This document shows, piece after piece, positions 191 to 62,572 of a stretch of 64,000 bases of DNA (positions are counted from its first letter, which is position 1; each line of letters opens with the position of its first letter). Position numbers and translations under genes: made by a program. The notes under the pieces were generated by a model. It did no database searches. It worked only from the letters and a program-made list of their open reading frames with translations, and was not told the origin of the DNA. This DNA is from Diadema antillarum (lineage: Eukaryota): contig NW_027271283.1 in NCBI RefSeq assembly GCF_040938485.1, positions 1,426,001 through 1,490,000 of the forward strand, given 5' to 3'.

Positions 191-3100
191 CTTCGTCATC
201 ATAAAATCCATTCTCCTCCTTCTCTTCATTTTCTTCTCCCTCCTCCTCATCTTCGTCCATATTGAATGACAGCGTGCCTGCATTCTTGTGCTTCCTCCTT
301 CTCTTACCAGACTTGTCCGACCTATAAAGAACATAGACCTGGAAGTGGTGAATCTGGCCAGCATTCCTCTACACAGTTAATGATAGCGAGCTTTAAATTT
401 GCAACATGAACGCTAAAATGAAGCAGCCTCATGAGTTGGACAATGGAAACACCTATCTCCACATGTGCAGAACACCATTTCTTGCCTAATTAGCATCATC
501 TTAGTGTTTGCATTGCAGACCTAAAGCTCGCTACCATTACAAGGAAGAGGCACAGGTAGAATGGTGTGTAGAACTAAGTCTTGCATAGCTTAAACAAACA
601 AAAAACAAACAAATTACAGCAACTATCTTAGTTGTTTACCTGTTAACAACTAATGACAAAAATTTAGTAATTAAGTTGTATCACAACTCACTTGCTGTAC
701 ATACATGCATATAAATTACTTCTAAATGTAATTTATTCTCTTTATGTACATTAAAACACTTAGTGTCTCTAGGATCAATATATACATACATATATATCCA
801 CAAAATAATGAAGAGGCAAGTAGAATACCCAGGTAATAGGAAAGGGAAATTAAAGAAAGCAAAGTGAGAGACAAATAAGCATCATTTTAAAGACGAAAAT
901 CAACCATCACTGGGATGCAATATAATTTTTCATTTCATCAGAACTAAACTTTGTTTGTTCCATTCTCATTAAGAGGTTCTACATTGGTCAAGAGTTTTTC
1001 AACTAAAACTTGTAGTCACTTTAGCCACAGAACTACATGTTGATTCAACTTAAGATTTTGTTTTAAGTGGAAGGCTGTTTGCATTAAAATGTGAGAAATA
1101 TATACATTGTATGTAACATAAAGTTATTTTACTTTATCAGTAAGCATATACAGAATACGCATACATTTAAACATAACCATAAATCTGGTGATTATCTGTT
1201 TCATTTGAATACCCTTCAGAGTTACAGTCATTATTAGCAGTACGACAATGAGAATTATGGATATACAGTTCTGCCCTAGTGCAGCGCATGACTTACGATG
1301 ACTTGATCGACTGGGCAAGCTCTTTCTCACGCTCTTTCAGCAAGTTATCTCGCTTTGACCTCATCTGGTCAAGGGTAACAAGACCTAGTGAAGCACAAAA
1401 CAAATGTAATGTATAAAACATATAACCCCTAATTTCTATGGAGACTACAGGACACAGATTACACTGTATGCATCGGTCTTGCTAAAACAGGCAGCTCTAC
1501 CTCTAATATAGCGGTATGTAAACCTGTGTCCACTTACTGCATGTCATTATACATAATGATACTGGTACTTTTAATATGACTATTTTTTTTAATGAATTTC
1601 AATGCATGAATTAGGATGAATAATTACCTTCCTTTTATGAAGAGCGGGATGGTCAGGTGATATCCTAATTGAATTAGAATCTTCATGTACCAGGTACCAG
1701 GATTTGTACTGTTCCATCATGTCTTTGACATCATTTTTCTCAGTAGCTACTGCCTACTGGGCACTGGGTCTTGAGTCTATTCAGATCCTGGAAGGATTTA
1801 CAGTCAACAGGTTCATATCTACTTTCAACTTTGCTACAACACAAGATAGTTTCTTAGCATTTCTAAGATGAGCTCTTTACCAATGGTGCTGCTCTTGAGT
1901 TGCTGCTCCACTGCATCATAATGAGCTGAAAATTTCGCACTGATTGTAGCGACCCTGCTGACATTGTCCTGTGTGAGAAGAGAAAGGAACAAGAAACCAA
2001 ATGCTTCTTTACTCTATTGGAACAACAGATGTACCGGGTGTGAGCATTGCCAGATTGCATACGGTAACACTAACAGTGAAATTAGTTTTTCAAACAGGCA
2101 AAAAACAACAAAACTTTTGTGAGAAAACCGGCGATTTGGTAAAGTATGTACCCAGTAGCTTTATAAAAGGAGGAAAAAAAGAAAAGTTATTTGAGTTTGT
2201 TTACAATGTTTCAAGACACCATATGTCATGCAAAAAATGTGCGCAATAGAGCAGATTTTACACTTACTTGCAAGATTCGATATCTGTCTCAGATATTAAC
2301 TTTGTCAGTCATACAAGAGTTTCACTGTCGATTGACTCGATAGTCTAGTCTTACTCTCTAATGAATATCAATTATCGTATAGTCGCCACTTGCGTGTATT
2401 TCTTATGCACTCCCGGGTTGGCAAATTAACGCTAGACACAGAATTAGTTCGCCGCCCATAGTGTGCCACGTATTGATATCAGCGCGTGTTATACACACAC
2501 TTCAATGTAGGACTAAGATTTACTGCGACCAGCCCCATACGCATAGCGTTATGGGGCTGCGGACTGTAGCATTCAGGATCGTGACTAGGTAGTATCGCGC
2601 CCAAATATCAACTTTAAATCGAAAAATTTATTCAATTTGAAGACTTACCAGTGAAGCTGAAGTATTGACAACAGGGTTCGTGCAACGATTGGTTCTGTCA
2701 ATAGTCCCTTTCTGTTCGAATTGATGACTTAATGTGACTCGGTCGAGAGAAACCTGGGAAAGCTACACTGAATTGACGGCCAGCGCATGCGCATACAGAC
2801 ATCTTATCCAGTCAATGGATTAGAAATTTGTGCGCATGCGCTGGCCGTCAATTCAGTGTGGCTCTCCCAGGTTTCTCTCGACCGAGTCACATTAAGTCAT
2901 CAATTCGAACAGAAAGGGACTATTGACAGAACCAAACGTTGCACGAAGCCTATTGTCAATACTTCAACTTTACTGGTAAGTCTTCAAATTGAATAAATTT
3001 TTCGATTTAAAGTTGATATTTGGGCGCGATACTACGTAGTCACGATCCTGAATGCTACAGTCCGTAGCCCAATTACGCTATGCGTATGGGGCTGCTGGTC

Positions 3101-52108: not shown

Positions 52109-54307
52109 GTGACGTTACACGATATTTTTGAAAAAGGTAAAACAAATTATAATAAAAAGGGATTTCGAGTAATGTCACAACAACGTATAGAAAGTTTTAA
52201 AATGAGTCTTGATCATACCGACTGGTCTGCTGTTTATAATATGAATGACGCTGATATAGCGTTTGATATATTCAATGAAATTGTTTTGCGTTTATATGAT
52301 GCTCATTTCCCAGTTTCATCGATCAAATTGAATTATAAAAAAATCCCAAGAAGTCCTTGGATCACCAAATCAATTTTGAGATCTATAAATCGTAAAAACA
52401 ATTTATTTTATAGATATAAGTCTAGTGGTACAGAAGAAGCAAAACGTAAATACTCAGCTTACCGAAATACTTTGACTTCTGTGCTACGTAAAGCAAAAAA
52501 AGATTATTTTTCTGCACAATTTCAAATCCATAAAAATGATATCAAGTCTACTTGGAAAGTTATAAATGATGTATTAAAAAAGAATGATGGAAAGAAACTG
52601 GGAATTGATAAAATAATACAAAATGGAACGATAATTGATGACTCCCGTGGTATTGCTGAAGCATTCAACACGTATTTTGTAAATATTGGGTCAAATTTGG
52701 CCAGAAATATTCCTTTAACGGAAAAAACATTTCATTCATTTCTTGTGAATCCCAATCCTAGTTCTATATTTTTCACGCCCGTAGATGCATTGGATGTCAT
52801 TGATATTGTAAATAATTTTAAAGCTAAACAAAGCTCAGGCTATGATGGTATTTCAATGTTTCTTCTTAAACAAATCATTTATGAAGTAGCCGCACCTTTG
52901 ACCCATGTATTCAATTTGTCTTTAATGACTGGTGTTTTTCCTAGTAAAATGAAAGTTGCCAAGATTATTCCTGTTTTTAAGAAAGGCAGACAGGACGACC
53001 TGGGCAATTATAGACCTATATCTCTTTTATCATCATTCTCCAAAGTACTTGAAAAAGTTGTCTACTCCCGAACTATCAAGTTTTTAAATGACCATGATAT
53101 CTTAGTAGACACTCAATTTGGTTTTCGCAAAAAACATTCGACTACTCACGCTGTTTTGTTGTTAATAGATAAAGTTGTTCAAGCTATCGAAGCTAAATCT
53201 CACACTGTTGGAGTTTTTCTGGACCACTCCAAGGCGTTCGACACAATTGATCATGAAATATTACTGTACAAACTGTCTCATTACGGGATTCGTGGCAGCG
53301 CCTTGGAGTGGTTCAGAGATTACCTCACAAATCGATCACAATTTGTACACATTAATGATTCTGATTCAAGCACAGCAAATATAACGTGTGGTGTTCCACA
53401 AGGCTCCCTTTTGGGACCACTTCTTTTTATTGTGTACATAAATGATTTGCCCAGGTCGTCAGCACTCCTTTCTTTCCTCTTGTTTGCGGACGATTCAAGT
53501 CTTTTTTTGACGCACAAAAATCCTACTGAGTTACTTGATATGCTTAACTCTGAGTTGAATCACGTCAATGATTGGATTCAAAGTAACAAACTATCTCTAA
53601 ATCTAAACAAAACTAATTTTATGGTGTTTAGTAATACAATCACTTGTTTACCTGGCTCAATTTCAATCACAGGAGTAAACTTACAACAGACAAATTCAGT
53701 TGAATTTCTTGGTCTTTTAATTGATTGTAAATTATCTTGGCAGGAACAAACAAATCATTTATGTAAGTTATTATCAAGAAATTTGGGTGTTATACAGAAG
53801 CTTAAGCATGTTTTCCCCACATATATATTACGTACCTTATATTCGACTTTGTTATTGCCGTATCTTCATTATAGCATACTGGCCTGGGGGAATTGTTCCA
53901 AAATACGCCTGGAGTCTATCTTTAGAATACAAAAGCGAGCTGTAAGGATTATCAATTGTACCAATTATTTAGCACCGACAAGCCCTCTGTTCAAAAGTAA
54001 TAACCTCTTAAAGATTTTTGATATATATTTTTACTCCCTTGGGATATTTATGTACCAGTTAACTAAAGACGAATTACCTTATGCTTTCACTCCCATGTTT
54101 GTAAAAAATAAAGTTATACATTCCTACCCTACAAGACAGGAAAATTCATTTCACTTTTCTCCCGTGAGAACTGCATTTGCTCTTAAAACAATAGTACATA
54201 CAGGTCCAACATTCTGGAATAGCCTTGACTCCGACATTATTGAATCGTTGTCATTGAACTGTTTTAAACGTAAACTAAAAAAATCCCTTGTGCAGGCTTA
54301 TATCTAA
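52109..54307 (+). CDS. LINE ORF2 reverse transcriptase, lacking the endonuclease domain (732 codons open)
   Basis: NYRPISLLSSFSKVLEK, QFGFRKKHST, FLDHSKAFDTIDH, GVPQGSLLGPLLF..YINDL, LFADD, LSLNLNKT, FLGLLID. Confidence 0.92.
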   Translation: MTLHDIFEKGKTNYNKKGFRVMSQQRIESFKMSLDHTDWSAVYNMNDADIAFDIFNEIVLRLYDAHFPVSSIKLNYKKIPRSPWITKSILRSINRKNNLFYRYKSSGTEEAKRKYSAYRNTLTSVLRKAKKDYFSAQFQIHKNDIKSTWKVINDVLKKNDGKKLGIDKIIQNGTIIDDSRGIAEAFNTYFVNIGSNLARNIPLTEKTFHSFLVNPNPSSIFFTPVDALDVIDIVNNFKAKQSSGYDGISMFLLKQIIYEVAAPLTHVFNLSLMTGVFPSKMKVAKIIPVFKKGRQDDLGNYRPISLLSSFSKVLEKVVYSRTIKFLNDHDILVDTQFGFRKKHSTTHAVLLLIDKVVQAIEAKSHTVGVFLDHSKAFDTIDHEILLYKLSHYGIRGSALEWFRDYLTNRSQFVHINDSDSSTANITCGVPQGSLLGPLLFIVYINDLPRSSALLSFLLFADDSSLFLTHKNPTELLDMLNSELNHVNDWIQSNKLSLNLNKTNFMVFSNTITCLPGSISITGVNLQQTNSVEFLGLLIDCKLSWQEQTNHLCKLLSRNLGVIQKLKHVFPTYILRTLYSTLLLPYLHYSILAWGNCSKIRLESIFRIQKRAVRIINCTNYLAPTSPLFKSNNLLKIFDIYFYSLGIFMYQLTKDELPYAFTPMFVKNKVIHSYPTRQENSFHFSPVRTAFALKTIVHTGPTFWNSLDSDIIESLSLNCFKRKLKKSLVQAYI

Positions 54308-54858
54308 TAATACAATTCAAACATGCAATTTTATTTGAACTCCCTCTTCTTTATCAGATTCGTTGTTTATCATATGTATTCCATGGTTGCCTTTTGTTTG
54401 TTTTTTACTGAGTCATTTATGTCAAGGCTATTCCTGAATTAATGAATCATTATGTATCATGTGCGTTTTTGCGCATTCTTACAGTTACGTAACTGTGTTG
54501 CTCGGGTGACAAGGAGTCTTGTTAACGCGTTACAGGTGGCTACTTTGTATTTCGCTATGCTTTCGTATATTTTATTCCTTTCCTTTGCTCTTTTTGCTCT
54601 CTTTTCTTTTACGTCCCTTTCCTTCCTTTCATAGTTTTCGTTTCTAGGTTGTTTAAGAAGACCAACACTTTCATATATACAGGGACCTATACATTACAAG
54701 CTTTGCTTTTTAGTAGGTCCCCACATTTCATGTTTGTTAAATTGTCTTCTCTTGTATTTTTTGTAATTTACGACGCTATGTTCAATCTTATGTTCAATCG
54801 ATCGTATCATGTTTGATGTTTTGAAATGTGGAACAATAAAATCAAATCAAATCAAACA
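52110..54858 (+). mobile_element. 5'-truncated CR1/L2-group LINE, young
   Basis: Uninterrupted RT ORF, about 550-bp 3' UTR, AATAAA plus (ATCAA)n tail; possible 7-bp TSD ATATTTG (52103-52109, 54859-54865). Confidence 0.93.
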
Positions 54859-55191
54859 ATATTTGAATTAATATCATATTTCAATGCATGTAAAATACGG
54901 TCTTTCTTTCTTCATGCTATGTTTTGTACACTGACACTCTTTGTTGAAAATGGAAATAAATGAAATGAAAATGAAAAATTACCGGACGAGAAACACATAT
55001 TACTTTCATTTTGACGATCCTTGAAAAAATAGTAAGATATCAAATAGTAAGGACCTCCCTCATCGCCTTGCTCAAAAAACCCGGACGAGAAACTACTTTC
55101 TTTTTTTACTTGGCCTAATAATAAACTTAGTAAATTGTAAAAGATTTTAGAGTATTGAACGTGAAATTGCACTTTAATTGTTATTAAACAG

Positions 55192-55631
55192 TTACCAAAC
55201 GGTTTGGCACAGACAGAGCTTGGCCTTGGAGTTGCCGAGGAGGGCACAAACAAAAGTATGACTTTATTGTAGGAGCTGATGTCAAGACTTTTTATCTTTT
55301 GTCCTCGGAAGAAGATAGTTTGGTGACTTTTTTTCAGTTACAAACAGAATGGGCAGATGCTAAGCACATAGCTGTCCATACACAGCAACATATCAGGAAG
55401 GAATGTCCCTTATCTAACATTATAAACAACACCGTTGGTCAAGTACACAATATTTTAACATTATGCGTACACTTTATGATCTTACTTTGATATCCCCGTT
55501 TTCCCCGTTTCGAAATAAGAATGTCATTTTCTTTTTCTACAGAATTAATTCATGAGAAGTTAAGGTTACAGCATCATTCCCATCAAGAACAAGCTGAAGG
55601 AAAGTCATTGAGCAGTAATTCTGGATGTTAA
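55192..55631 (+). other. Putative terminal exons of an unknown plus-strand cargo gene (55192-55255, 55338-55437, 55543-55631)
   Basis: Strong acceptors (TTTTTTCAG, CTTTTTCTACAG); phase-compatible open frame ..LQTEWADAKHIAVHTQQHIRKECPLSNIINNTV|ELIHEKLRLQHHSHQEQAEGKSLSSNSGC*. Upstream exons uncertain; no homology recognised. Confidence 0.4.
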
Positions 55632-56214
55632 TTGCATGACAACAGGTGCAAGCTATGCTTCATGACGCCGTGACACTGGTACTGAGAGCCGCCGGGAAAG
55701 CCGACATTCGTGAGGAGCAAGCCGAACATGCGAACATGAATTGAGAGTAGTCCAACTTGCATGAACATGTGCCCTTCAACATCAATTTCTAAAACTGCTG
55801 TCGTGTTCTGTCCACCAAGATCATTCCCTAAATCAAAGAGAAGAACAAATACTATGATTAATGTGTACAACAAAAGTAACTCGGCAGTTTAGAGTGTAGT
55901 GGGCAGAATTATACATGAAATAAACACATCTGCACACTAAAAGGTATCTTGCCGAAGTACAGTGTACTGACGTTAGAACAAAGTCTTTGGGATCGGCAGT
56001 TTTGTTTCGTTGTATCAAAATTTTGTGTACAACAACACAAACAAAAAAAACCAACACTCAAATATGTGATTATCGACTACTCATAATATGCTAAAAAGCA
56101 ATATTAAATGCAATCCTATCACTTTAATTTCATTGATATTGTACATTTAATAGAGAAAGTTGTTTGTACTTCATGCTTAGTTTGAAATCACATCAAAGTA
56201 GTTGAGGATTCGAG

Positions 56215-57015
56215 TACTATTCTAAAGGTTCGTTGTTCCTAATGTCCGTTGTACTATAAAAGGTTTGCCGTTTCGACGGGTAGTCGGTTTTACGGCTCGC
56301 TATTCCCAAGGTTCGTAACGGTTGTTCAAAAGGTTCTTTTTTAAATGAAAAGGAAATTTATGGTTTGTTATTCTGAAAGTCCATTAATCCGAAATGAAGT
56401 ATCATTCGATTTTTCCGAAGGTTTGTTCATCTTCAATGAAAGGTTCTTTTATATATGAAAAGGAAATTTAAGGTTTGCTATGCTGAAAGTCCATTAATCC
56501 AAAATGAAGTACCGGTATCATTCGTTTTTTCCGAAGGTTTGTTCATCCGTCAATGAGAAAATGTTAGTTATTTCATTTCGTTTATCATAAAATGGAAATA
56601 AGGTTCATTGTTCATAAAAAAGATCGTTCATCCTTAAATGAAAACGGTTCATTATCCGAAGACTTGTTGATCTAAAAACGATGATGTATGTTTTTGTTAG
56701 CAGTCCTATAATCACCTCTTCATTTTCGGAGTCACAAACGATTTTCATTTCCGATTAACTAACCTTGAAACACAAAGATTCCAAATATTTTTAGGTTAAG
56801 GAACATTCGTAATAGCGAATCTTATTTCATTTTCGGATTACTGAACGCAAGGAAAAATGAATCTTCGCAGTAACGTCATATGCCATACAATGTCGCAATG
56901 ACGGACAGTAGTTTATTTCGGATTTGCAACGAACATCTAGGTACACTGCAAACAGAATTTGTGTGTTTTGGAATTACGAACCTTCGGAAAAAACGATCGT
57001 TATTTCATTTCGGAT
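56215..57015. repeat. AT-rich element built from TCCGAAGGTT/TTCGGA motifs in inverted arrangement
   Basis: Repeated CCGAAGGTTTGTTCATC and TTTCATTTCGGATTA motifs; about 120-bp internal direct duplication at 56330-56560; boundaries approximate. Confidence 0.6.
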
Positions 57016-57414
57016 TATCTTATAATATGGCCTAATGCAAGTTCCCTGAAACGCAGAGCGATTTCTATTTAAACCCACAAAAATGTGATGCGTTCTTCAA
57101 CAAAGAGACGCTCGCTAAATTTTTCTTATGCTGAAGTCATACTGTATATCGTAAGCGTCCCGCATTTCGTTATAGGGCCTTATAGAATAAATTTCGTTCA
57201 TTTTTCTTTTTCAATGTCGCCCGGAAATTACTTCGTTCAATCGAAAATTTAGCTATAAACGTTTTACTTTTGAGTGACTCAATGATGTTTATTTTTAGAT
57301 CTTAATTTTTTCATGTGCTTCGACGTTGTAACAATATGTCGTTCGTGGTAACGCAAGTGCACCGTATCAGCTCCTCTTGCCAACGCAACATGCAGAATCA
57401 TTGTTGAGCATTAA

Positions 57415-57499
57415 CCCGTTGAGGACGAGTCCCGAGTATACTCGGGCAGGTGTCTACGGGAAACGCGTGTTGTAGCAAAATCAAACCGTCCTCAACGGG
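57415..57499. mobile_element. 85-bp piggyBac-type MITE
   Basis: TTAA TSD on both sides; 13-bp TIR CCCGTTGAGGACG; internal palindrome CCCGAGTATACTCGGG. Confidence 0.9.
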
Positions 57500-59590
57500 T
57501 TAATAATGATTCAGGGAAGAGTGGAGAGCCTATTTCAGGGCTACCATTATCCTACACATCGTACGATCTTACCTTGCTCAACTTCCATTGTGCTGTTGGG
57601 ATCTGTGCCATAAGACAAGGAAAGAAAATATATCCAAAACTGTTAAGAAATGTTCCAGTTTCACAGAGAGAAATACAAATATGCAGTGTGATATTAATAC
57701 TGAATTAGATTGGTAGCAATATATCAATGTTACTTTTATGTGTAACGTTGCTTACCTTGTTCGTTTTGGCCTTCATTACGCAACTCCTTCATTTCCTGAA
57801 TGTGAACATCGCATCAGTTCTTGGAGGTCATCTTTATGAAATTAACAGATGTAGTTTGGTTAGTATACATGTACTTGCATCTAGATTCAAACAGAATTGA
57901 TGTGGCACACGTGTAACACTTCTAAAGAAGTACGCATGTAATCTGTTTCTGCTTATGATGCGCTTATGATGCAATAACCAATAAAACAAATGTGATATCA
58001 TCATTCACTGACCAATTAATGAAGCATGCGTGTGGGCCATCATGTGAGAAGTTCTGGTAACTTTTCTTACCATAGCACATGGCCTCTCCCCTCACTTGAC
58101 TCCACGATGACGGGCGTGCTACCGCCGGACCTACAGGTGAGAGCTCACCCTCGAGTCATAGATATTACAATGATTCATAAAATGTTTGGTTAAACTATCA
58201 GCACTGCATACTCTATAACTGTAGTGAGACCAGTCTTTAAAATTGCTGCAGTACTCGCTTACGGGAGCCATTTTCAAGTTTATTTTATAAATCATTTGAT
58301 TATAAGGATTTTAAAAATGGGAATATCATTTAGATGCGATCGAAAGAAGTATCTTTGATAATTTCGTTTCCACTGTTTCACAATTATTTTTTTCGTTTGT
58401 TTTTGTTTTGTTTTGTTTATAGAGTTTTGTTTCTAGTTTTATTCAACCGTTCCTTGAATATTAAAGCACTTCCCGTTTTGTTTGTGATTATTTAAATGCC
58501 CGTGTGTATGCATACATTATACATGGGAAACTAGCGTCGGCAGCTGCGCACGTGCAGTCGGACATACATTACTAGTAAGTAGTTTTCAACACAACGATGT
58601 GTTCACAACGGGATTTGTAGGTACCGGCATACAGTCGCCAAACCAGACAATCGGAAATCGGAATATTAATTAACAATAATTAGAATTAATATTTTATCAA
58701 TAAGAAATATTCATACCGTTCAAATTTGCCATAATTCCACTGCAAAGTGCATTGGTGACTTCGTAGGTGTGTTAAGTTGCTCCATGATGCGTGTACATGT
58801 ATTGCCATTGACAGCACAGCGACTTTCACATTTCGCGCGATAAATCCACGGGAAGACGGACAACCCACAAAAGTAGACGGTGAACTAGGGGTATTTGTAC
58901 ACGAGGAATCCGTTTATCGCATGTAGAACGTGCGGTTCGGTACCCCTAAGCCCGCAAAGCCCCGAGGAAAAAGTTCGTCCGCGAAAAAGCTACCGATCCC
59001 GATTTTCGCGGACGCGATTTGTCCGCGTTTACGAAGATACCCTCGTTTGTGCGGACGATCCGCATTCTCGGACCAGCACCCCTACTGATTACTATAGTAA
59101 TACTGATCATGATAGTGATGGGATGGAACATTTGCATGCATCCCATTGACCACTGATGGTGACCGTACACTACACAGTGTGTTACTGCATCATATTTGCA
59201 CTGTCCTCAACAAGTACATCTAACTTTTTACAGTACAGACCACAGTTGCATTCACTGCACACACATAAATATTGACACAAGATTTTACCAGAGATGCCAA
59301 AATCAGATAGCAGCTCAAAAGCTCAGCGTGAGATTTTGCATGTGATCCATGACATTGAAGGCTTGAGTAAAAGCTTGTAAGGCGTGTGAACGCGAGAAAT
59401 CCCCAGTGGTGCGAGTTTCACACTAGATGGCATGAGACTTGGTACAGTGTACATGTAGGTCAGCATTACTGCAGCAGCAAATGCAGATACTTGTTGAACC
59501 ATCAGTCACATGTGAACAGATCTACTATGCATGCATACATTTTCAATTGAATTGTATTTAACAACCCCATATCTATAAAAATGTAACACA

Positions 59591-59996
59591 TGGCCGGCGC
59601 CCCCCCCCCCCCACTTTTTTTGCACCATACAAATTGTACAAAGAAATACATAAGGTGTTAGCACTTTGCCCCCCCCCCCACTTTTTTAAACCCAGAAGTG
59701 GGTAAGTGGTACTAGAAAGAGATAGAGATCTTGAAGTGTGAGGGCAATAAGGCTATGTTTTTGCGCTGAAGACCTTTTTTTTCTTTTCTTTTCTTTTCTT
59801 GTCAGCTAAAGAAACCCGAAAGTGGAAGATGAAGATGAGCTGAGGACCTTTTTTTTTTTTGGGGGGGGGGGGGGGGATTGTTAGCTGAAGAAACCCAGAA
59901 GTGGATTTTTTTTTTTTTTTGGCTTGTTAGCTCATGAAACCTGGAAGTGTGCCCCCCCCCCCCCCCCCCACTTTTGAAAATGCTCCGCTGGCCCTG
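59591..59996 (-). mobile_element. CAGGGCC-terminus MITE remnant with poly-G/C runs
   Basis: Minus strand starts CAGGGCCAGCGGAGCATTTTCAAAAGTGGGGGG; repeated CCCCCCCACTTTT motifs; same design as the ends of the 25093 element. Confidence 0.6.
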
Positions 59997-62572
59997 TAAA
60001 TTTATTTGATGACTAAAGCATGCATAAACAATATTCCATATTAGACCAAATCGTACTGTCATAATCTTCATCCAGTTTATCAGTTTTTCATTGAATGCAT
60101 GTTGAGCAAGTTGTTCACTTTTATTTGAGACTCATCTTTTGGTATCCAATGCACTGTGAGAATTATTTGTAATTATGCCTGAATATCCTTCACTTCCTAG
60201 ACATAGGTAATCCTAATATTACTAAAGGGCATGCCTACCCGTTGGAAAATTATTTCTGCCCCTACTCTTTTTTCCCCTTCTCCATGCATTATGATAGCAG
60301 TGAAACAAAAGAACATATCGTCACTGGCATGTCAAGACCTCGCATATTCTACAAAATGTCGAATGTTCAGGAGAGCCAAAAAATATGGCAGCCAAAGCAC
60401 TATAGCAAATGGGATAGCCTTTCCTTTGACATGCCGCAGTAGCGTCATTTTTGGAATAAGACAGTTCGGATTTGGACAGGACATCACTTTGACCATTAAT
60501 CCAAAAAAGTCATTTTCACCAAAATTTCAGATAAAGGTCTTGTCACCCCAGCAAAGATATGATAATGTAATTGAATGAAAAGTAGTATTATGCTCAATAA
60601 ACGTACACGCAGTTAGTAAAAATGAAGTCCTCCCAGATGCAGCACCTAATTTGAATTTTGGGATTTGGGCAGAGGTTTTCGTCTCTCAGCAAATCAAGCG
60701 TGTGAACAAATCTGCACATAGGCACTACACACCAGTGACCAGGGTCTTTGCACTTTGTTCCTCTTCTTCTCTGTGGGCAATGTAAAAGTGTAGACTATGC
60801 AAGTGTGTTCATGTCTCACTATAATTGAATTTAAAGTTTATGAAGGTCACGTGTACATTAAGCATTGTGGGATAAATATGTAAAGTAGTAATTTTGATAA
60901 GCCACATAAAATTTACCTACTGTGACTTTCGTTCAGAGAGTAATTTCTTTGCAAGAGAGAAAAAAAAAGTTTTAATGGCTGAAAAGATTAAATTGGCAAG
61001 GGGAATGGAACCACCCATGCAGGGGATCCAGCAAGAAGTAGAATACGCTGTATACTTCAAAACAAGCAAACAAACACCTGGCTGCCACAGGCTGTGTATG
61101 ATTCAGTCCTCTGAGGTAAATACACCTCTGCTCAAACACAGGGCCCAAGTGTCATTGAGCTATCAGTGATTATAGCCTTTTGAAGTACTACTGTCAGTAT
61201 TCAGTTGTACTCCATTTAATAGTCTTTTTTTAAAAAGTCCACTTAATTTGGGAAGTATCATTTCTTCTTTGATTACACTCGTTGAATACATTTCATTGAT
61301 GGCAGCCAGCTACACACGTACATTGTTAGTAATAACTTCAGTATCACTTCTTGGACTTGATAGTTGCGCATCATTGATTGTGCTGTGGTACATCGATATG
61401 TACACTAGGCACACTTAGCTTTGAAGAGACTAACAAACAATTTAAAAAAAGTAGTCCAAAGATTTATTTGTTCTCCATTTCTAAATATATAGGTGATGAA
61501 AGCTGCGATTGGTGCATCACCAGAGTGATGCGTATCCCATAAAAATCATTCATCCTTTGACCTGATTGTCATTGAACTCACAGCCATGCTATGACTTGAA
61601 TTTTCCTTCATTATCCCATTGAATTCTTTTAGTGAAAGTATGTTAAACTCTTTATGTAACAACGTTTCTACGAGAACAGCTCAACTTTCCAGATGTAAAC
61701 GAGATGGACTGAACTGCACTGGAGTTCTTCTATGCTCTGTGAAAATTAAGAGTGTTGTTTTTCCCCTTGTCAAAGCTGCTGTGAAAGTTGAGATGGCAAG
61801 GTTTATTTAGTGGTTGTTGCTAAGGGTATGCTGCCCTCTCAGTTGTAGGAGCATCCATGTCTCTCAGTGATGCCACCACTGGAAAACGTCATGTTAGACC
61901 TGCCCTGGCTAAGAGCGCTTGTCGATGAGAGGAATATTACTGAAGTAGCAGCTCGGCATTAGTCATCCATATGTAATCTGAGCACACTTTTATCACTTTA
62001 TTTCCCGCTCAAGCAGCTGTTTTTCTGTTACCCTGCGATACTTATTAGTAACGATTATGTGTCAGCTAGCCTAATTAAAATCATCCTCTTTTGCCACTGG
62101 GTTTTTTTTTTCCTTCATATTCTGTCCACCCTCTCTCCCACCCTTCCAGTGCTTAAAAATATAAATGTGGATTGAGTGATGCAACAAATTAGTGGAACAC
62201 ATCCGTGAAAGTTTGAGGAAAATTGGACAATCAATTCAAAAGTTATGAATTTGTAGAGTTTTGATGCCGTCATCGCTGGATATACATGACATCATTCTGG
62301 ACAATGTGATAAAAGAAAATATAACAAGAATTCCACAGAATTTTAATTTTTCATGAAATGTACAAATACCAACATCTTGTTGCAGACACATTGTAGTGTG
62401 CTACAGGTGTATGTACAATGTATGTCCCTCTTCTTTCTGAAAGAGGTAATTCAAGTGCTCTTTCATTATGAAAATATGTTGAATCTTCTTTATATTGTAG
62501 TCCACAATGACATCATGAACCTTAGTAGTCTCCCTAACCAGTGATGACAGCACCGGAATTAAAAAACTTTAT

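Follow-up and report, generated by a model that had tools for sequence, protein, structure and literature searches.

We have analyzed a stretch of 64,000 nucleotides of the Diadema antillarum genome (RefSeq assembly GCF_040938485.1, contig NW_027271283.1, positions 1,426,001 to 1,490,000 of the forward strand), referred to here as the window, and found that a mobile element bounded by terminal inverted repeats (TIRs) carries a chain of minus-strand exons that very probably is, or once was, a protein-coding gene. The exon structure and the codon periodicity of this chain are beyond chance. It ends in a TTAA (55628..55631) that contains a TAA stop on either strand, at 55629-55631 on the plus strand and at 55630-55628 on the minus strand, and a candidate chain of plus-strand exons runs into the same four bases. 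A preliminary description of this region had reported two convergent spliced open reading frames (ORFs) with stops overlapping in one TTAA. The overlap lies where it had been placed and the five junctions listed are all of the GT..AG type. Of the two spliced ORFs, the minus-strand one is supported statistically as a spliced coding unit but is not open, its seventh codon being TGA, and the plus-strand one has neither an ATG nor a codon signal. The explanation that we favor, to which we would give an even chance, is a non-autonomous CAG..CTG transposon with a single broken passenger gene on the minus strand, the plus-strand exons being most likely cryptic splice sites.

The probable minus-strand gene

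The minus-strand chain consists of exons of 16, 60, 76, 30 and 200 nt. The junctions 58071/57831, 57756/57602 and 57573/55827, all GT..AG, delimit introns of 239, 153 and 1745 nt. The most upstream exon of the preliminary description (58717..58732) has an ATG at 58732 and a donor of 8.5 bits, and shows no codon periodicity. The next one (58071..58130, 60 nt) ends in an ATG directly followed by the GT of a strong donor (10.0 bits), and it may be the first exon, given the weakness of its acceptor (2.2 bits, at 58130). Downstream are a 76-nt exon of phase 0-1 (57756..57831; acceptor 3.7 bits, donor 10.7 bits), a 30-nt exon of phase 1-1 (57573..57602; acceptor 8.3 bits, donor 11.2 bits) and the last coding exon (55628..55827), which is stop-free over 200 nt, has an acceptor of 10.1 bits and shows GC values of 0.57/0.32/0.55 at the three codon positions.

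Splice phases had been described as compatible on both strands. This holds for the plus chain but not for the minus chain when read from the ATG at 58732, because the five exons then add up to 382 nt, which is not a multiple of 3, and translation halts at 57778-57776, within the 76-nt exon, after 43 codons. Only if splicing omits the 76-nt exon does this ATG come into frame with the rest of the chain, giving an open reading of 101 amino acids (aa). The two upstream exons, read from 58732, have no periodicity (p 0.74) and are therefore probably 5' untranslated region (UTR). The probable start codon of the gene is the ATG at 58073-58071, from which phases 0, 1 and 1 are compatible along 309 nt, i.e., 103 codons. 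Codon 7 of this reading is an in-frame TGA (57816-57814), and the longest open reading that keeps the 76-nt exon begins at the next in-frame ATG (57792) and gives 88 aa.

The window belongs to an intron-rich animal genome with 36-37% GC. An acyl-CoA dehydrogenase gene (plus strand) and a ribosomal protein L18A gene (minus strand) located in it were used as host controls, and splice matrices were derived from 16 donors and 15 acceptors of host genes and of the intron of a nested hAT element. Among 7,496 GT sites the donors at 57573, 57756 and 58071 rank 2, 5 and 10 (with ties), and three donors so strong within 500 nt appeared in 3 of 200 simulated 64-kb windows. The last four sites of the chain sum to 40.3 bits. 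Of 1,200 null strand-segments 8 attain this score, and of the 32 real strand-segments of the window a single one, located in the host gene region, surpasses it. The codon signal is also clear. Over the last three exons (101 codons) GC by codon position is 0.55/0.31/0.55 and the periodicity 0.248, not equalled in any of 5,000 shuffles. It is detected in the pair of small exons (p 0.008) and in the last exon (p 0.001) when each is tested alone, in the frame that the junctions impose, and fades at about the TAA. The same statistic takes values of 0.25-0.27 in the host control exons, 0.08 in the hAT ORF and 0.01 in the ORF of a long interspersed nuclear element (LINE), and with the host codon model the minus chain gave p 0.007. 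In the unmasked rest of the window, one of 117 comparable stop-free stretches exceeded this periodicity. That stretch is located at 62347-62541 (plus strand), with a Pfam match only at E 0.2.

It is very improbable that both chains are chance splice-like signals in non-coding transposon DNA. Such an origin would agree with the lack of homologues in any search and with the in-frame TGA, and the four-site score alone is unremarkable window-wide (8 of 1,200 per strand-segment, with 32 segments), but the donor clustering (3 of 200) and the periodicity (0 of 5,000) are independent and fall in the same frame across two introns.

Several points weigh against the passenger-gene explanation. The sites used to train the splice matrices were few (16 + 15) and picked by eye. 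In the last exon the codon model scores the in-register antisense frame, which contains 4 stops, at 9.8 vs. 2.4 bits for the sense frame, and the periodicity statistic is symmetric for that antisense frame. With a permissive splice-chain score, 300 of 600 null sequences reach the value of the minus chain; this score fails to separate because long chains accumulate score, and chains of fixed length were used in its place. Finally, no credible homologue of the peptide of either strand was found in single-exon searches. The queries were short (33-100 residues), in part word-seeded and restricted to single exons, in the large libraries to those longer than the exons of 10-25 codons, and for this reason the absence of homologues is weak evidence.

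The preliminary description had recognized neither peptide, and no relative emerged from the searches. In Pfam, 140 frames plus 6 more gave at the cut-off only the nested hAT and reverse transcriptase (RT) controls, and 8 single-exon or read-through frames searched at E up to 10 had no match at the cut-off. In a set of 5.8 billion proteins, none of 4 candidates stood for the last minus exon among longer proteins (word-seeded search) and none of 18 for the plus frame 55188-55487, for which proteins of similar length gave no candidate. With phmmer, the last minus exon had 3 matches among 1.84 billion representatives, all to long repeat proteins, that were rejected: their E-values are sums of weak stretches and the best pairwise alignment had 21.9 bits (the top match alone was aligned). 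Among PDB sequences the last minus exon had no match and the plus frame had 3 (E 0.2-1.5), with a faint likeness to 3luu_A lacking Pfam support. A single-sequence AlphaFold2 model of the minus exon, with two helices, was uninformative (predicted local distance difference test, pLDDT, 59.8; predicted template modeling score, pTM, 0.33), and Foldseek found no PDB match for this poor model. Visual inspection suggested kelch-like, BTB-like, zinc-ribbon-like and RAG1-C-terminal-like patterns, which were dropped because no profile supported them and the same residues could be read as several mutually incompatible patterns; the kelch-like one, in the last minus exon, lacked Pfam support at E up to 10.

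The shared TTAA and the candidate plus-strand exons

The overlap of the two stops is unsurprising, because a TAA that follows a codon ending in T gives TTAA and the last sense codon of the minus chain ends in T. It carries little information by itself, since 370 of the 1,321 plus-strand TAA triplets are within a TTAA.

The candidate plus-strand exons are located at 55192..55255 (64 nt, no ATG; acceptor 7.1 bits, top 3.2%; donor 6.8 bits, top 2.5%), 55338..55437 (100 nt; acceptor 8.8 bits, with an alternative acceptor at 55348) and 55543..55631 (89 nt, open to the TAA, without codon signal; acceptor 11.6 bits, top 0.19%). The junctions 55255/55338 and 55437/55543 are GT..AG, with introns of 82 and 105 nt, and the joined chain runs for 83 codons without a stop. 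It has no in-frame ATG, so that it is at best a 3' fragment. The donor at 55437 (GTCAAG), already pointed out as weak in the preliminary description, scores -1.1 bits, a value equalled by 58% of all GT, and matches the consensus at 4 of 9 positions. The chain shows no codon signal, either with the host codon model (p 0.50) or by periodicity (p 0.13-0.27 over three splice variants). Its four-site score of 26.2 bits is below the null median, and 1,194 of 1,200 null best chains reach it when any stop is allowed.

When this TTAA is taken as the given stop, the acceptor at 55543, the three-site chain and the five-site chain were matched in 3, 3 and 12 of 1,000 shuffles of the 509 nt upstream, and among 734 other real TTAA sites they were equalled at 3, 3 and 7, figures that speak for a real plus-strand gene rather than for cryptic sites. 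Because the minus gene sets the TTAA beforehand, this test is harder to pass. Given that several stop geometries would have been eye-catching, we consider the result suggestive and not decisive, and overall the evidence for a plus-strand gene is mixed.

An alternative that we regard as possible but doubtful is that the ancestral element had two real convergent small spliced genes, with stops sharing the TTAA and 3' UTRs each antisense to the last exon of the partner, able to form double-stranded RNA (dsRNA), both damaged in this copy, the plus gene having been cut off from its 5' exons by a 9.2-kb insertion. Three good plus acceptors are found within 350 nt, the introns measuring 82 and 105 nt, and a single base separates the weak donor from the consensus, but the codon signal is missing and does not go beyond p 0.06-0.13 even when hand-picked exons of the left arm of the element are added. 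Ranked against real TTAA sites, the chain to this stop falls within the top 0.4-1%, and against shuffles within the top 0.3-1.2%; however, several near-overlap geometries would be equally striking, which dilutes these values, and when chains are permissive 21 of 300 random sequences of 3,970 nt contain a joint overlap with such scores. By starting in the left arm and bridging the insertion, an open plus chain of 117 codons can be assembled, but the exons of the left arm are at chance level (the best upstream plus exon is equalled by 41 of 100 real tiles). Likewise, poly(A)-like hexamers are present past the TTAA on both strands (plus strand 55919; minus strand 55268 and 55178), but they are frequent in AT-rich DNA. 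A 48-nt candidate exon at 45039-45086 (plus strand; acceptor top 8%, donor top 1.4%) fits in phase the exon starting at 55192 across the nested insertion, no better than chance.

If both strands were transcribed through the TTAA, the mature RNAs would overlap along ~285 nt (55543-55827) and could pair as dsRNA. No RNA structure was detected on the minus strand of 55543-55827 (z +1.43). A true plus gene would make this locus a compact natural test of convergent transcription in a transposon feeding small-RNA silencing, and two true genes would give it an architecture like that of the RAG-like (RAGL) transposons described below, with proteins unrelated to theirs, together with an internal supply of dsRNA through which it could silence itself. 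We consider unlikely that the element represents an unclassified family, with target site duplications (TSDs) of 5 bp and no transposase, in which two convergent orphan micro-genes end in one TTAA and the 3' UTR of each is antisense to the last exon of the other.

The minus-strand gene might also have been longer, for instance as a bigger captured gene or as a deleted transposase of which these were 5' exons, a proposal that we find decidedly improbable. The last exon would have continued beyond the TTAA, with a change of frame, as far as a donor at 55486, the TAA would have been made by a frameshift, and the strong plus acceptor would be the antisense of a purine-rich coding run. The shifted minus frame is in fact stop-free for 30 codons past the TTAA and, after one TAG, meets the donor at 55486 in phase 0 (8.2 bits, top 1.1%). 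Its periodicity is 0.156 (p 0.044), but as the best of three frames this becomes p 0.107; besides, two further lesions are required, three read-through frames had no Pfam match and no coding downstream exon was found. Under the passenger-gene explanation, the plus-strand stop in the TTAA would be a by-product of the last codon of the minus gene, and the plus exons most likely cryptic splice sites in the 3' flank of that gene.

The outer element and comparable transposons

The preliminary description had placed the region inside a mobile element, and we have located the ends of one. The outer element spans 44599-59087 (~14.5 kb, or 5,241 nt once the largest nested insert is subtracted), and the TTAA and both exon chains are in its right arm. 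The left TIR (44599..44631, plus strand) begins with CAG and shows a weaker similarity out to ~75 nt, and pairs with the right TIR (59055..59087, minus strand). The TIRs are 33 nt long, complementary at 32 of 33 positions, and both ends begin with CAG (CAG..CTG). They are flanked by perfect 5-bp copies of ATTAC at 44594..44598 and 59088..59092, the TSD; a match of 5 bases is expected by chance with a probability of ~0.0013. Self-BLAST showed no second copy of the ends within the window.

We searched for a transposase of the outer element itself in the stop-free frames of at least 28 aa of 44599-46600 and 54850-59087. None of the 137 frames reached the Pfam cut-off, with sub-threshold noise only, while 3 control ORFs matched hAT and RT families in the same scan. 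The outer element therefore appears non-autonomous, although it may contain an unrecognized, finely spliced remnant of a transposase. An Rfam scan of 44000-60000 had no matches. A minus-strand frame of 161 stop-free codons (44598-45080) takes up much of the left arm and ends at the TSD, with mild periodicity in its first 32 codons (p 0.06); it had no match in Pfam, and among PDB sequences nothing beyond one hit at E 1.9. A strong plus-strand donor at 44307, before the element, and an exon-like plus-strand stretch at 60937-61115, after it and without Pfam match, suggest that the outer element may occupy an intron of a plus-strand host transcript.

The CA..TG ends of the element presumably fit hAT. 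The hAT families with a 5-bp TSD are known as hAT5 (PMC12730594), and the outer element has in common with them this TSD and a short TIR but not a transposase that would place it; the literature searched yielded no case of a small passenger gene in hAT5. CA..TG termini and TSDs of 2-5 bp are also given for the CMCT clade, with transposase motifs C(2)C and H(3-4)H (PMC12730594). Both features are present in the outer element, in which, unlike in that clade, no transposase was recognized. A 5-bp TSD with CA..TG ends thus fits hAT5 and the CMCT clade alike. In Repbase, TSD length together with the first 11 bases decides where a non-autonomous element is placed (PMC4455052). Assignment to hAT5 would call for a hAT transposase of the Blackjack-related lineage or for ends that align with those of a known hAT5 family. 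In our literature search the terminal 9-mer of the outer element retrieved unrelated papers only, and we found described neither this element nor any transposon with two stops sharing a TTAA, although Repbase Reports and supplements, outside the scope of the search, may hold an account of the element.

RAGL/ProtoRAG transposons have a 5-bp TSD, a TIR of ~30 bp, an invariant CAC start resembling the RSS heptamer, and convergent RAG1L and RAG2L genes (PMC7204232). The TSD and the TIR length are shared by the outer element, and the convergent pair would be only if the plus gene is real. However, the ends of the outer element are CAG instead of CAC, its ORFs have ~100 codons, and neither Pfam nor PDB sequence searches found a RAG1 or RAG2 match, so that neither the ends nor the ORFs agree with membership in RAGL. 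Pack-TIRs are TIR elements with cargo from a parental host locus, with a median cargo of 224 bp (PMC8277862). Like them, the outer element contains an intron-containing, non-transposase coding sequence, but its cargo of ~2.5 kb with introns is far above that median. No parental host copy matched within the window or, with single exons as queries, in the protein libraries, and a capture is left without parent-gene support because no homologue was found.

Taking the TIR, the TSD, the nesting, the minus exon structure, the coding signal and the nonsense codon as observed, we infer the other steps as follows. A transposase acting in trans, hAT5-like or CMCT-like by the end features, would have inserted the outer element. 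Its passenger gene, on the minus strand, would probably be transcribed from the CpG-rich right end, start at the ATG at 58073 and encode a product of ~100 codons ending at the TAA in the TTAA. The retained introns and the host-like GC by codon position point either to a capture at the DNA level of a gene or gene piece or to a long-resident accessory gene, two origins that are not separable here. The nonsense codon and the accumulated nested insertions suggest that this copy is decaying.

Non-autonomous TIR elements carrying passenger or relic genes are well known, and the container is for this reason ordinary. The part that calls for an explanation is the minus gene of ~100 codons, statistically supported and with no relative in the single-exon searches, and from intact copies of it a new family of small proteins carried by transposons could be defined.

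Nested insertions and other repeats

The left arm of the outer element is separated from the region of the TTAA by a nested TIR insertion (45871..55115), with GGCC ends, a TAA duplication and an imperfect TIR of ~130 nt, that by these ends we take to be Harbinger- or Zator-like. Inside it there is a hAT element (46607..51086, minus strand) with an 8-bp TSD. The hAT transposase (47678-49690, minus strand) is located within the TIRs and TSD of this hAT element and is nearly complete; it has a single in-frame stop (48277-48275), its 5' exon is spliced, and a short retroelement-like tail has been inserted close to its 3' end. The same insertion contains a 5'-truncated LINE (52061..54856, plus strand), with an RT frame of 748 codons and an AATCA tail, and an inverted-repeat element of ~130 nt (51151-51281).

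Two features are located in the long minus intron. One is a miniature inverted-repeat transposable element (MITE) of 85 nt (57415..57499), with CCC ends and a TTAA duplication, presumably of the piggyBac type. The second is a repeat-like stretch (56200-57050), for which ends and TSD were not found, that includes a tandem duplication of 110 nt and an inverted repeat of 42 nt. Outside the outer element, the window has a second LINE fragment (37761-38956, minus strand), frameshifted and with an RT match, a near-perfect inverted repeat of 264 nt (2530-3094), a tandem duplication of 636 nt (26550-27694) and a tandem array of 157 nt (39908-40702).

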